Source of the DNA: a virus
Taxonomy: Duplodnaviria; Heunggongvirae; Uroviricota; Caudoviricetes
Reading direction: 5' to 3' (one strand)
DNA length: 5,659 nt
IMG/VR virus record: IMGVR_UViG_2585427766_000017
This document shows positions 1 through 5,659 of this stretch, piece by piece. The position numbers and the translations under genes were made by a program. The stretch's first letter is position 1, and each line of letters starts with the position of its first letter. The notes beneath the pieces were generated by a model that worked only from the letters and a program-made list of their open reading frames with translations, searched no databases and had not been told where the DNA came from.

Positions 1-2053
1 TGGCTGATTAAAACGGAACTGCTGGAAACGCAGACCGTGGACTTCAGCGTGGGTGCGGAAGGGCTTCGCCATGTACCGGGGGATGTCATTGAAATCTGCG
101 ATGATGACTATGCGGGTATCAGCATCGGCGGGCGCGTGCTGGCGGTGAACAGCCAGACCCGGACGCTGACGCTCGACCGTGAAATCACGCTGCCATCCTC
201 CGGTACCACGCTGATAAGCCTGGTTGACGGAAGTGGCAATCCGGTCAGCGTGGAGGTCCAGTCCGTCACCGACGGCGTGAAGGTAAAAGTGAGCCGTGTT
301 CCTGACGGCGTTGCCGGATACAGCGTGTGGGGGCTGAAGCTGCCGACGCTGCGCCAGCGCCTGTTCCGCTGCGTGAGTATCCGTGAGAACGATGACGGCA
401 CGTATGCCATCACCGCCGTGCAGCATGTACCGGAAAAAGAGGCCATCGTGGATAACGGGGCGCACTTTGACGGTGACCAGAGCGGCACGGTGAATGGTGT
501 CACGCCGCCAGCGGTGCAGCACCTGGCCGCAGAAGTCACTGCAGACAGCGGGGAATATCAGGTGCTGGCGCGATGGGACACACCGAAGGTGGTGAAGGGC
601 GTGAGCTTCCTGCTCCGTCTGACCGTAACAGCGGACGACGGCAGTGAGCGGCTGGTCAGCACGGCCCGGACGACGGAAACCACATACCGCTTCACGCAAC
701 TGGCGCTGGGGAACTACAGGCTGACAGTCCGGGCGGTAAATGCCCGGGGGCAGCAGGGCGATCCGGCGTCGGTATCGTTCCGGATTGCCGCACCGGCAGC
801 ACCGTCGAGGATTGAGCTGACGCCGGGCTATTTTCAGATAACCGCAACGCCACATCTTGCCGTTTATGACCCGACGGTACAGTTTGAGTTCTGGTTCTCG
901 GAAAAGCGGATTGCGGATATCAGGCAGGTTGAAACCAGCGCCCGCTATCTTGGCACGGCGCTGTACTGGATAGCCGCCAGTAGCAATATCAAACCGGGCC
1001 ATGATTATTATTTTTATATCCGCAGTGTGAATACTGTTGGCAAATCGGCATTCGTGGAGGCCGTCGGTCGGGCGAGCGATGATGCGGAAGGTTACCTGAA
1101 TTTTTATAAAGGGTTGATCAATAAAACACATCTCGCCAAGGAACTGTGGAAAACATTGATAACGGAAGATAACGCCAGCTGGCTGAAATCAGGACGTCCA
1201 TTCGAAAGAGTGAAAGGACGCCAACAAGAAATGGAAGACCATGTGGGGCGTCAAAATTGAGCAGACCAAAGACGGCAAACATTATGTCGCGGGGCTTGGC
1301 CTCAGCATGGAGGATACGGAGGAAGGCAAACTGAGCCAGTTCCTGCTGGCAGCAGACAGGATTGCGATGATTAATCCTGCAAACGGGAATGAAACGCCGA
1401 TGTTTGTGGCGCAGGGCAACCAGATATTCATGAACGACGTGTTCCTGAAGCGCCTGACGGCCCCCACCATTACCAGCGGCGGTAATCCTCCGGCATTTTC
1501 CCTGACACCGGACGGGCGGCTGACGGCGAAAAATGCCGATATCAGCGGTAACGTGAATGCGAACTCCGGGACGCTCAACAACGTCACGATTAACGAGAAC
1601 TGTCGGGTTCTGGGAAAATTGTCCGCGAACCAGATTGAAGGCGATCTCGTTAAAACAGTGGGCAAAGCTTTCCCCCGGGACTCCCGTGCACCGGAGCGGT
1701 GGCCATCAGGAACCATTACCGTCAGGGTTTATGACGATCAGCCGTTTGACCGGCAAATTGTTATTCCGGCGGTGGCATTCAGTGGCGCTAAGCATGAGAG
1801 AGAGCATACTGATATTTACTCCTCATGCCGTCTGATAGTGCGGAAAAACGGTGCTGAAATTTATAACCGTACCGCGCTGGATAATACGCTGATTTACAGT
1901 GGCGTTATTGATATGCCTGCCGGTTACGGTCACATGACACTGGAGTTTTCGGTGTCAGCATGGCTGGTAAATAACTGGTATCCCACAGCAAGTATCAGCG
2001 ATTTGCTGGTTGTGGTGATGAAGAAAGCCACTGCAGGCATCACGATTAGCTGA
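1..2053 (+). pseudogene. J: Tail-tip host specificity protein J (lambda gpJ family), 5'-partial and disrupted: central portion in frame 1 (1..1260) and C-terminal receptor-binding portion in frame 2 (about 1214/1241..2053)
   Basis: Frame 1 is open from nt 1 (the GTG at 37 is only the first start-like codon, not a real start) and reads [41 protein letters not shown]...[64 protein letters not shown]...[34 protein letters not shown], which I recognise as near-identical to the central, FN3-like region of lambda J (from memory). Frame 2 ORF 1241..2053 reads [30 protein letters not shown]...[45 protein letters not shown]...DMPAGYGH, matching the lambda J C-terminal region. The two parts are in different frames, and frame 2 carries TGA stops at 1184-1186 and 1211-1213, so no single ORF spans the gene. 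Confidence 0.85.
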
Positions 2054-2120: not shown

Positions 2121-2720
2121 ATGCGTAAATTATGTGCTGTTATTTTGTCCGCAGTAGTCTGGCAGGTCGCCGCTGCTACGCCAGCGAGTGCAGCAGAACA
2201 TCAATCCACGCTGAGCGCGGGGTATCTCCATGCCTCGACGAACGTTCCCGGCAGCGATAATCTGAACGGGATTAACGTGAAATACCGTTATGAGTTTACG
2301 GACGCGCTGGGGCTGATTACGTCCTTCAGTTATGCCAATGCTGAGGATGAGCAAAAAACGCGCTACAGCGATACCCGCTGGCATGAAGATTCCGTGCGTA
2401 ACCGCTGGTTCAGCGTGATGGCGGGGCCGTCTGTACGCGTGAATGAATGGTTCAGCGCGTATGCGATGGCGGGTGTGGCTTACAGCCGTGTGTCGACTTT
2501 CTCCGGGGATTATCTGCAGGTGACCGGCAATACGGGGAAAACGCACGATGTGCTGACAGGAAGTGATGACGGTCGCCACAGCAACACGTCTCTGGCGTGG
2601 GGAGCTGGCGTGCAGTTTAACCCGACCGAATCCGTGGCCATTGATATTGCTTATGAAGGCTCCGGCAGTGGCGACTGGCGCACTGACGGTTTCATCATGG
2701 GTGTCGGTTATAAGTTCTGA
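2121..2720 (+). CDS. lom: Lom/Ail/PagC/OmpX-family outer-membrane beta-barrel protein (phage lambda Lom homologue), with N-terminal signal peptide
   Basis: 199-aa ORF with a signal-peptide-like N-terminus (MRKLCAVILSAVVWQVAAATPASA). The motifs GINVKYRYEFTD, SVMAGP, SAYAMAGVAYSR and the C-terminal AIDIAYEGSGSGDWRTDGFIMGVGYKF match lambda Lom as I remember it, including the terminal aromatic residue typical of outer-membrane barrels. Position directly after J matches lambda gene order. Confidence 0.92.
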   Translation: MRKLCAVILSAVVWQVAAATPASAAEHQSTLSAGYLHASTNVPGSDNLNGINVKYRYEFTDALGLITSFSYANAEDEQKTRYSDTRWHEDSVRNRWFSVMAGPSVRVNEWFSAYAMAGVAYSRVSTFSGDYLQVTGNTGKTHDVLTGSDDGRHSNTSLAWGAGVQFNPTESVAIDIAYEGSGSGDWRTDGFIMGVGYKF

Positions 2721-2745: not shown

Positions 2746-2773
2746 CAGCCCGCCGGTTCAGGCGGGCTTTTTT
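2746..2773 (+). terminator. Putative rho-independent terminator between lom and stf
   Basis: Stem agcccgcc (2747-2754) / ggcgggct (2761-2768) with loop ggttca, followed by TTTTTT (2768-2773); it lies 26 nt after the lom stop codon. Confidence 0.7.
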
Positions 2774-2784
2774 GTGGGGTGAAT

Positions 2785-4295
<1,511 letters not shown>

Positions 4296-4296
<1 letters not shown>

Positions 4297-4925
4297 TGGA
4301 AGCAGTGGACTTTATTACTGCGGTCAGAAATGCCGCTTACAACGAATATGGTGCTATCACCTGCGAGGTTCAATTTGAGGGGGCCGTGGATGCCAGAGGG
4401 GAGCCGAAATGGTCTCCTTTTACGGCCACATCCTTAGATGTTACGGACTATGGCCGACAGCTTTACCATGATCTGGTAAATGGCAAATATGGCGAAGTCA
4501 CCCCATTCTCAGTCACACCTGAGATACTGGAAAGAGAAAAAGCAGCCAGGTGTGAAGAAATTAATCTCTGGCGCGACCAGCAGGAGAATATCGAATACCT
4601 GATGGAGTTTAACGGTCGTCGCTGGGATTACGGCAAGCACACAAAGGAGCGAATTTCAACATCGCTGACCGTTGCCAGAAGCGGGCAACTACCTGAGGGT
4701 TTTGCCTGGACAGATGGCGACAACAATATCGTGCCGGTCACGGCGGCTGAACTGCTGGCTCTGGGGGATGCCATTGAGCTGGCGATGTTCAACAAAGGTG
4801 TGGAAATAAATACCCGCCAGCTGCAGATGAAGGCTGAGGTCAGCGCGCTGCAAACGCTGGAGGAGATTCGGGGTTACGTGGTTGGATGGGCGCATGAGCA
4901 GGTTCACGACACCCGCAATTCTTGA
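4296..4925 (+). CDS. Hypothetical protein in the tfa position; putative tail fibre assembly/chaperone or accessory protein (possibly DUF4376-like, unverified)
   Basis: 209-aa ORF whose ATG (4296-4298) overlaps the stf TAA stop (4294-4296), giving a TAATG translational-coupling junction, with a GAGGGTAAGG Shine-Dalgarno-like stretch just upstream. It occupies the position of tfa in lambda, but I see no similarity to the lambda Tfa sequence. Confidence 0.6.
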
Positions 4926-5271
4926 AATGCTGGATGACTACCGCTGGCGACTGGTGGAACCGTTTGAATTCTGGCTCACGGACGAGCCGGAAGATGTTAT
5001 CAGCGTGCCGGCAGGTTACGTCACTGACCTGGCAAGCGTACCTCGCATCCTGTGGGCGATATTTCCTCCGCACGGGCGTTATGCCAAGGCTGCAATCATT
5101 CACGACTGGATGTACGACAATGGGCTCCGGACAAAAAGAGAGGCAGACAGGATTTTCCTGGATGCCATGAAGGTGCTTAAGGTACCTGCCTGGCGGCGTC
5201 TGATGATGTACTGTGCTGTACGTCTCTTCGGGCGGGGTAACTACGAACCGATACATCAAAAAACAATGTGA
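4894..5271 (+). CDS. DUF1353-like hypothetical protein (phage tail-region accessory protein of unknown function)
   Basis: ORF in a different frame that overlaps the 3' end of the 209-aa gene. It contains PAGYVTDLASVPR...AAIIHDWMYD, which resembles the motif I associate with DUF1353 proteins. The start is ambiguous: TTG 4882 (ORF-track start), ATG 4894 (chosen here), or ATG 4927, which lies one nt after the upstream TGA stop (4923-4925). Confidence 0.6.
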   Translation: MSRFTTPAILEMLDDYRWRLVEPFEFWLTDEPEDVISVPAGYVTDLASVPRILWAIFPPHGRYAKAAIIHDWMYDNGLRTKREADRIFLDAMKVLKVPAWRRLMMYCAVRLFGRGNYEPIHQKTM

Positions 5272-5410
5272 TTTCAGTGATTCACATATCCGGGATAAGA
5301 ATCAAGAAGCCTCAGACACGACGTATGCAGGACGTGCTGCGGTTGGCTGGTGAACTTTCGATAGTGCGAGTATTGAATGATTTCCAGCCGTTACCGATTT
5401 TACGTGTTAA

Positions 5411-5659
5411 TTAGTGAGCAAACCACTCGTCAGCAGACTCCCAGGTATCTTTCAGAGTTTCCTGAACAAAAGTTTTAGCTGAATCTTTATCGGCGGTGCG
5501 CGTAACAGAAAGGCCATCGTTGCTGGTAGCTTTTACGATCACCTCTACATCGTCATAACGTTTACTGATGCGTCGGGTTAATTCTTCCTTTAACGCATCC
5601 ACAGCACCGGTTGGCATTTTAGTCATTTTTTCTTTGGCTATGCAGATTTCAATACGCAT
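5411..5659 (-). CDS. dinI: DinI-family DNA-damage-inducible protein (RecA/SOS modulator homologue), complete; start codon is the last 3 nt of the window
   Basis: 82-aa minus-strand [14 protein letters not shown]...[20 protein letters not shown]...LSV...[11 protein letters not shown]. It matches the E. coli DinI pattern MRIE..IAK...P.GA.DAL..EL.RRI...LSV...QETWESADDWF in length and in N- and C-terminal signatures. Confidence 0.85.

Follow-up and report, generated by a model that had tools for sequence, protein, structure and literature searches.

The 5,659-nt stretch of DNA analysed here in full (hereafter the window) covers, according to its ORF list and Pfam matches, the tail end of a lambdoid prophage, and its features are collected in Table 1. 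The GC-rich hairpin between lom and stf (an 8-bp stem with seven GC pairs, followed by a T-run) marks the start of a unit formed by stf, a DUF4376 gene and a DUF1353 gene. With a strong terminator-like hairpin 5' of stf, antitermination or read-through would be needed for expression of stf and the genes downstream of it. A consensus scan of the plus strand from stf to the end of the DUF1353 gene found no promoter-like or terminator-like site. Relative to the intact J genes of two related loci (L004 and L007), the window's J carries indels of -1, -2 and +7 nt near 1150-1200, with a net frameshift that reflects either a defective prophage or sequence errors. No complete E. coli genome in RefSeq covered at least 80% of the window; in public assemblies that encode an identical 209-aa protein, the prophage neighbours are yecD-aspS-nudB-ruvC, a chromosomal context of the E. 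coli/Shigella type.

Table 1. Features of the window; positions are counted from its first nucleotide.
Feature	Position	Strand	Basis
J, C-terminal part, split in two overlapping ORFs	37-1260 and 1241-2053		
lom	2121-2720		Ail_Lom, 2e-122
GC-rich terminator-like hairpin and T-run, between lom and stf	2747-2768	+	
stf, side tail fibre, 505 aa	2779-4296	+	Pfam; PHROG 3279 tail fiber
GAGGG, Shine-Dalgarno-like, within the 3' end of stf	4284-4288	+	Sequence inspection
TAATG stop/start overlap of stf and the 209-aa gene, 1 nt	4294-4298	+	
DUF4376 gene, 209 aa, predicted intermolecular tail-fibre chaperone	4296-4925	+	PF14301, PHROG 1141
Variable N-terminal module, residues 1-75, putative fibre-tip binding part	4296-4520	+	AF2 model, homologue alignments
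Conserved DUF4376 domain, residues 81-190, inferred trimerisation/assembly module	4536-4865	+	Pfam envelope
DUF1353 gene, 125 aa from ATG 4894, TtaP-like phospholipase A2 candidate	4894-5271	+	PF07087, 5e-34
DinI-like gene	5411-5659	minus	

The Stf fibre opens with a PF08400 domain (phage_tail_N, 2.9e-72), continues through an Ala-rich coiled-coil region and GDK collagen-like repeats (Pfam Collagen), and ends in a C-terminal globular region. Directly behind it, ATG 4296 and TGA 4925 delimit an intact ORF of 209 aa, with the position and sequence given in the first-pass annotation. The A at 4296 serves both as the last base of the stf stop codon (TAA, 4294-4296) and as the first base of this ATG, and 8 nt, a plausible Shine-Dalgarno spacing, separate GAGG from the start codon. 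The TAATG overlap and the ribosome-binding site upstream of it had been read at first pass as signs of translational coupling with stf. Both signals are where they were said to be, the 1-nt overlap and the Shine-Dalgarno sequence support coupling, and the tight junction recurs across the family: GAGG-containing junctions are found in related loci, and the junctions of L001, L004, L005, L007, L015 and L016 are identical to that of the window.

That the ORF is a real, conserved gene is shown by its product: the exact protein turns up in 321 blocks of a public assembly index and carries the NCBI title 'MULTISPECIES: DUF4376 domain-containing protein [Enterobacteriaceae]', while dN/dS values of 0.12-0.14 against homologues of 83-89% nucleotide identity indicate purifying selection. 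As J is frameshifted, the window copy may nevertheless sit in a defective prophage, and one could suppose it to be a functionless relic of a decaying element, the more so as stf has been deleted from several loci that encode the identical protein. We consider this quite unlikely given an ORF that is intact, identical across many assemblies and drawn from a family under purifying selection; the indels that split J could, moreover, be sequencing or assembly errors. Such decay would in any case bear on present activity and not on the identity of the gene.

At first pass the protein had been called uncharacterised. At the level of the family this was mistaken: its score for the Pfam domain DUF4376 (PF14301) is 58.5 bits, where the gathering threshold is 25 (E 1e-15; residues 81-190, profile positions 2-101 of 106), it matches PHROG 1141 at 2e-75, NCBI already labels it accordingly, and members of the family have been tested experimentally. 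No NCBIfam model matched the protein. A word-indexed search yielded 209 relatives, mostly annotated as 'DUF4376 domain-containing protein' of E. coli, Salmonella, Citrobacter and Cronobacter, and an HMMER search through all of 1.84 billion cluster representatives yielded 317 at E <= 1e-3, the distant ones being mostly alignable only from about residue 75 to about residue 200. Family proteins are approximately 170-240 aa long. Their conserved columns correspond to residues 92-179 of the window protein and include the near-invariant W92, R93, E97, D111, P133, W138, Q175 and K179. Judged from these alignments, the architecture is a variable N-terminal part followed by a conserved C-terminal DUF4376 domain. 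One E. coli relative (P0105) joins a window-like N-terminal part to a divergent C-terminal part, which indicates that the modules shuffle.

Comparisons with solved structures and with other classes of protein were negative within their scope. Sequence searches of the PDB returned nothing relevant, whether started from the protein itself or from a profile of 105 sequences, and none of the solved structures matched the DUF4376 module. Against prefoldin and Skp-type helical chaperones, no fold match rose significantly above what a generic helical hairpin gives. The literature describes DUF4376 chaperones as resembling in shape the intramolecular chaperones of T5 pb1 and K1F endosialidase (Peptidase_S74), with a helical core and beta-hairpin 'tentacles' acting at the C-terminal tip of the fibre in both cases; the 209-aa protein does not show the combination by which that class is recognised, a Peptidase_S74 HMM match and fusion to a fibre C-terminus with an autocleavage serine.

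The gene occupies the slot held in other phages by Tfa-type chaperones. Lambda Tfa, Mu U and P2 G are likewise encoded directly after a fibre gene and translationally linked to it (in lambda, orf-314 followed by orf-194). Lambda Tfa and Mu U/U' match the Caudo_TAP family (PF02413) at 1e-37 to 1e-43; a Pfam scan found no such match in the 209-aa protein at E <= 0.1, BLASTP against lambda Tfa and Mu U returned nothing significant, and hhalign of the 105-member family profile against the Tfa profile gave a probability of 1.3%. The claim that the protein shares no similarity with lambda Tfa is thus borne out by all three comparisons. A short stretch, LPEGFAW (residues 131-139, 4686-4712), recalls LPENFTW of lambda Tfa (BLASTP E 0.01 in a single comparison). 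Because the profile comparison gave 1.3%, we rejected this LPEGFxW motif as evidence of homology, and the likeness is probably due to chance or convergence.

Tfa-type chaperones bind the fibre through an N-terminal domain and trimerise through C-terminal helices (PMC9608196). Both the Tfa and the DUF4376 types combine a variable N-terminal part, which in the DUF4376 type too would be the fibre-binding one, with a conserved, helical C-terminal part. The C-terminal helices of Tfa are, however, about half the length of the DUF4376 module, which has no detectable sequence or profile homology to Caudo_TAP.

Experimental work on DUF4376 proteins comes from other phages. In the Alteromonas myovirus V22, the gene for gp27 lies directly 3' of that for the receptor-binding fibre gp26, which binds cells only if gp27 is co-expressed, and gp27 separates fully from the mature, functional fibre on SEC (PMC7289586). 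Our Pfam scan assigned gp27 to PF14301 at 3e-21, and hhalign aligned the window-family profile with it over the whole conserved domain (97.2% probability, E 3.5e-11, 123 columns). The homologous gp9 of phage A5 binds its own fibre more stably and co-elutes with it, yet is dispensable for a functional fibre; on these grounds its authors suggested a 'transient cap' (PMC10579305). In AlphaFold-Multimer models, such chaperones form a trimer with a core of helices and with beta-hairpin tentacles, and three strands at the N-terminus add to a sheet of the fibre head (PMC10579305). Similarly, a prophage of Campylobacter, CJIE1, carries a DUF4376 gene downstream of its H-fibre gene whose co-expression is needed for fibre function (PMC7882524). 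The statement in the same paper that Mu U contains DUF4376 was not borne out by our Pfam scan.

The window protein shares with V22 gp27 and A5 gp9 the Pfam domain, the slot after the fibre gene, a comparable size (195-239 aa, against 209 aa here) and, in the monomer model, the arrangement of strands at the N-terminus, a body of helices, and beta hairpins. It differs from them in sequence, with some 22% identity in the conserved domain and unrelated N-terminal parts, and in partner: a knob fibre of a myovirus or schitovirus in those phages, a lambdoid, collagen-like Stf of the PF08400 type in an enterobacterial host here. The DUF4376 gene of CJIE1 again directly follows its fibre gene, as does the window gene, although in a myovirus of the P2/Mu type with an epsilonproteobacterial host. 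The best-supported reading of these comparisons is that the 209-aa gene would be a new enterobacterial member of a known fibre-chaperone class, a family already recognised in databases.

We collected 79 loci from viral contigs, five from a one-genome-per-species set and six with the identical 209-aa protein. They contain 98 instances of DUF4376 genes, two of which lay at contig edges and were left out, leaving 96 usable. In 82 of these 96 instances the DUF4376 start is preceded on its own strand by an ORF of 130 aa or more whose end falls at -11 to +33 nt from it, which bears out the co-occurrence of an stf-type gene with a gene of this kind across genomes. The commonest spacing is 8-14 nt; the 1-nt overlap occurs at ten loci, and a gap of 3-20 nt at most of the rest. 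PF08400-type N-termini were recognised in 58 of the 82 upstream ORFs. The others that were inspected are fibres or fibre fragments with different N-termini or frameshifts, and display Ala-rich coiled coils, collagen repeats, P2 H-like N-termini or HxH-motif tips. Annotated phages offer the same picture: fibre gene L56 of phiP27 overlaps its DUF4376 gene L57 by 4 nt, the corresponding overlaps are 1 nt in Av-05 and 4 nt in Vibrio phage H188, and a DUF4376 gene is likewise next after the fibre gene in a P2-like Helicobacter prophage and in V22.

Most of the 14 exceptions can be explained, whether by frameshifted collagen regions (L017-L019), second tandem copies (L039-L042) or a mis-assigned start codon (L012). 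Only a short ORF (<75 aa) precedes the DUF4376 gene in L020, L031, L047, L050, L051 and L072. Three loci with the identical 209-aa gene (L002, L003, L006) have lost most of stf, yet a remnant of the Stf C-terminus is still joined to the upstream sequence, which suggests that they are deletion derivatives and not independent placements. The first-pass annotation had named frequent occurrence away from tail-fibre genes as an observation that would speak against a chaperone; what we found was adjacency in 82 of 96 instances, with the stf-less loci apparently being deletion derivatives.

Several of these loci merit a description of their own. In L002 (9003-10001), L003 (9552-10001) and L006 (9399-10001), an unrelated upstream CDS, for example an FII-like Phage_attach ORF, runs in frame into the last ~20-185 residues of Stf; these fusions have the appearance of scars left by deletion or recombination in prophages that are decaying. 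L039-L042 (~4253-5591) carry tandem DUF4376 genes after a single fibre gene, followed by DUF1353. The phage phiP27 (L095, 450-4058) has a Tfa-annotated gene (L55) after one of its two fibre genes and DUF4376 after the other, and both chaperone classes appear to coexist there, the Tfa type by annotation.

The fibres upstream of DUF4376 genes also resemble one another at their very ends. A C-terminal signature, ...G[TS]W... and some 20 residues later ...[TG]LFQR[IV]x, was found in 78 of the 96 instances. In the window it is carried by Stf residues ~483-505 (4225-4293), and the fibres of L001-L093 are otherwise diverse in sequence. The Stf C-terminal domain, described at first pass as novel, is by this signature one of a type of fibre tip that is met repeatedly in company with DUF4376 genes, so that its novelty was overstated. 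The signature may mark a tip domain served by DUF4376 chaperones. Fibre-tip similarity correlated weakly with chaperone similarity for both modules (rho 0.22 and 0.26), and as adjacency alone would give some correlation of this kind, these values do not discriminate which module reads the fibre.

A clearer indication of how the modules divide their labour comes from Salmonella enterica subsp. diarizonae CCUG 30040T (L012, segment 3471-7877). Here a serine invertase (Resolvase, 3e-49) adjoins a convergent pair of cassettes, in each of which a DUF4376 gene comes after a fibre C-terminus. The Mu G segment has this layout, the places of U and U' being taken here by DUF4376 genes. The gene at 4848-5549 of this locus is chimeric: residues 1-113 are 49% identical to residues 1-114 of Mu U (E 2e-36), and the remainder is a DUF4376 domain (8e-18). 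This composition argues that DUF4376 is able to replace the C-terminal module of Tfa, and the chimera supports a conserved domain that acts in assembly and trimerisation and a variable N-terminal part that recognises the fibre. A chimera of this kind could also explain the published statement on Mu U mentioned above.

The position of the gene could be given quite another meaning, since the region 3' of lambdoid tail-fibre genes is a known hotspot for cargo: the 209-aa gene might be a moron, a lysogenic-conversion gene or a defence gene, unrelated to fibre assembly. Homologues (ORF-191) adjoin eib genes in P-Eib prophages, and lom and a DinI-like gene flank the cassette in the window. Cargo of this sort would hardly be expected to overlap stf by 1 nt and to show no promoter-like site of its own in our scan, or to have homologues after fibre genes in the virulent phages Av-05 and V22 and inside an invertible fibre cassette. 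The PADLOC defence models matched neither the 209-aa protein nor the DUF1353 protein, and the stf-deleted loci look like deletion remnants. We regard an origin as cargo as highly improbable.

Structure prediction is in keeping with the family assignment. An AF2 model of the 209-aa protein, built from a 105-sequence alignment, reached a pLDDT of 95.4 and a pTM of 0.82. Its N-terminal part consists of three beta strands (residues 7-15, 21-31 and 37-44) and a short helix; the body is formed by two long helices (75-98 and 150-184) and a further one (114-128), with a hairpin at 101-112 and a second, small one at 137-147. The model is of a monomer only, and as such has the strands, helical body and hairpins expected of DUF4376 chaperones, in a layout that agrees with the published description of the V22 and A5 proteins. 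For the C-terminal 156 aa of Stf, the AF2 monomer derived from a shallow alignment of 19 sequences had a pLDDT of 33.7, too low for a fold to be assigned.

The product of the 209-aa ORF is, in our assessment, probably a DUF4376-class intermolecular chaperone for tail fibres, which fills the role of Tfa for an Stf with a different distal domain. The earlier suggestion of a non-homologous chaperone in the tfa slot, matched to a novel Stf tip, is supported as regards the slot and the function by the coupling, the adjacency to fibre genes and the homology to V22 gp27, and was overstated as regards the supposed lack of relatives and the novelty of the tip. A plausible course of events would begin with ribosomes that terminate at TAA 4294-4296 and restart at ATG 4296, so that coupled translation would put the chaperone beside nascent Stf chains. 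The N-terminal beta module (approximately residues 1-75) may then dock on the C-terminal tip domain of Stf, while the helical DUF4376 module (approximately residues 78-200) would trimerise and bring three Stf C-termini into register. Folding would run from the tip to the collagen-like and coiled-coil shaft, after which the chaperone may dissociate or linger as a weakly bound cap. Where this scheme involves binding, stoichiometry, trimerisation, a requirement for Stf function or the fate of the chaperone after assembly, we infer these. The dispensability of A5 gp9 means that membership of the DUF4376 family does not guarantee a requirement. EPclA, a collagen-like prophage fibre that is related but has another C-terminal domain, forms trimers in E. 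coli when no partner is co-expressed (PMC3368898).

The scheme leaves room for the 209-aa protein to persist on the fibre. TfaMu and T2-type gp38 stay attached to their fibres, and the protein might mainly be part of the mature fibre tip, either as a cap that masks the receptor-binding site up to its release or as a retained adhesin. PHROG 1141 and several phage records do label its homologues 'tail fiber protein', although these are positional annotations with no tests behind them. Two studied homologues point in opposite directions: A5 gp9 co-elutes with its fibre, is unneeded for folding and has been proposed as a transient cap, whereas V22 gp27 separates fully from a mature and functional fibre. 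Neither the helical conserved part nor the small variable part resembles a typical receptor-binding domain. We consider a main role in the fibre tip unlikely, and it would overlap with the chaperone reading rather than exclude it. Of the accessory roles allowed for by the first-pass annotation, a secondary capping or adhesin function is possible, while an unrelated role of the moron type is improbable.

The preferred identification of the protein as a fibre chaperone is of practical concern. Retargeting of phages, tailocins and delivery particles makes use of the side-tail-fibre genes found in lambdoid prophages, and moving a fibre usually requires its cognate chaperone too. In about half of the enterobacterial prophage fibres sampled, the next gene is a DUF4376 gene instead of a Tfa gene, and public annotation gives it as 'DUF4376 domain-containing protein', 'tail fiber protein' or 'hypothetical protein'. 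With the gene known as the likely chaperone, engineers can choose the right partner for co-expression, and annotation gains as well. DUF4376 is, in this sense, an ordinary and little-studied replacement for lambda Tfa; the more original leads are the Tfa/DUF4376 chimera, the fibre-tip signature and a candidate phospholipase A2 chained to the chaperone gene.

This last candidate is the product of the DUF1353 gene, which overlaps the 209-aa gene by 32 nt if the start at ATG 4894 used in public gene calls is adopted. TtaP, the founding characterised member of DUF1353, is a phospholipase A2 with catalytic residues H70, D71 and D85 (PMC11525133). The window protein has the same length as TtaP (125 aa) and carries all three residues at identical positions. 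A DUF1353 gene lies no more than 500 nt downstream of DUF4376 in 24 of the 61 loci with room downstream, which makes it an optional third gene and not an obligate partner of the fibre. On the evidence of these sequences, DUF1353 often appears translationally chained to the DUF4376 chaperone in lambdoid prophages of E. coli, Shigella and Salmonella, and is a candidate phospholipase A2.

PHROG 1158, the family of the DUF1353 protein, is labelled 'tail assembly chaperone', and the stf, 209-aa and DUF1353 genes are mutually overlapping. One might accordingly reverse the roles, with the DUF1353 protein as the real assembly chaperone and the 209-aa protein as a small distal fibre subunit. The label is probably positional, and a gene present in 24 of 61 loci compares poorly with a near-universal pairing of fibre and DUF4376. 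The catalytic residues of the phospholipase TtaP are kept here, and the chaperones validated by experiment are DUF4376 proteins. Such an exchange of roles is, in our estimation, most improbable.

For the DUF4376 protein as the chaperone, a broader, tentative possibility concerns how such proteins are built. DUF4376 and the C-terminal helices of Tfa might be non-homologous, interchangeable 'trimerisation engines', each combinable with any fibre-binding N-domain, with the chimera as a record of the swap and a chained DUF1353 lipase as a possible companion. Such a lipase of the fibre module would possibly act at the outer membrane during entry or release. As regards the modularity of fibre chaperones, the Mu U/DUF4376 chimera lends itself to a simple test.

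A third gene in tight array is also seen in V22 (L094), where ORF28 (10960-11370) follows the gp27 gene with a 1-nt overlap. It encodes a small Peptidase_C92-like 'permuted papain-like amidase', a match that is weak and below the Pfam cut-off, and its place loosely parallels that of the hydrolase-like DUF1353 protein in the window.
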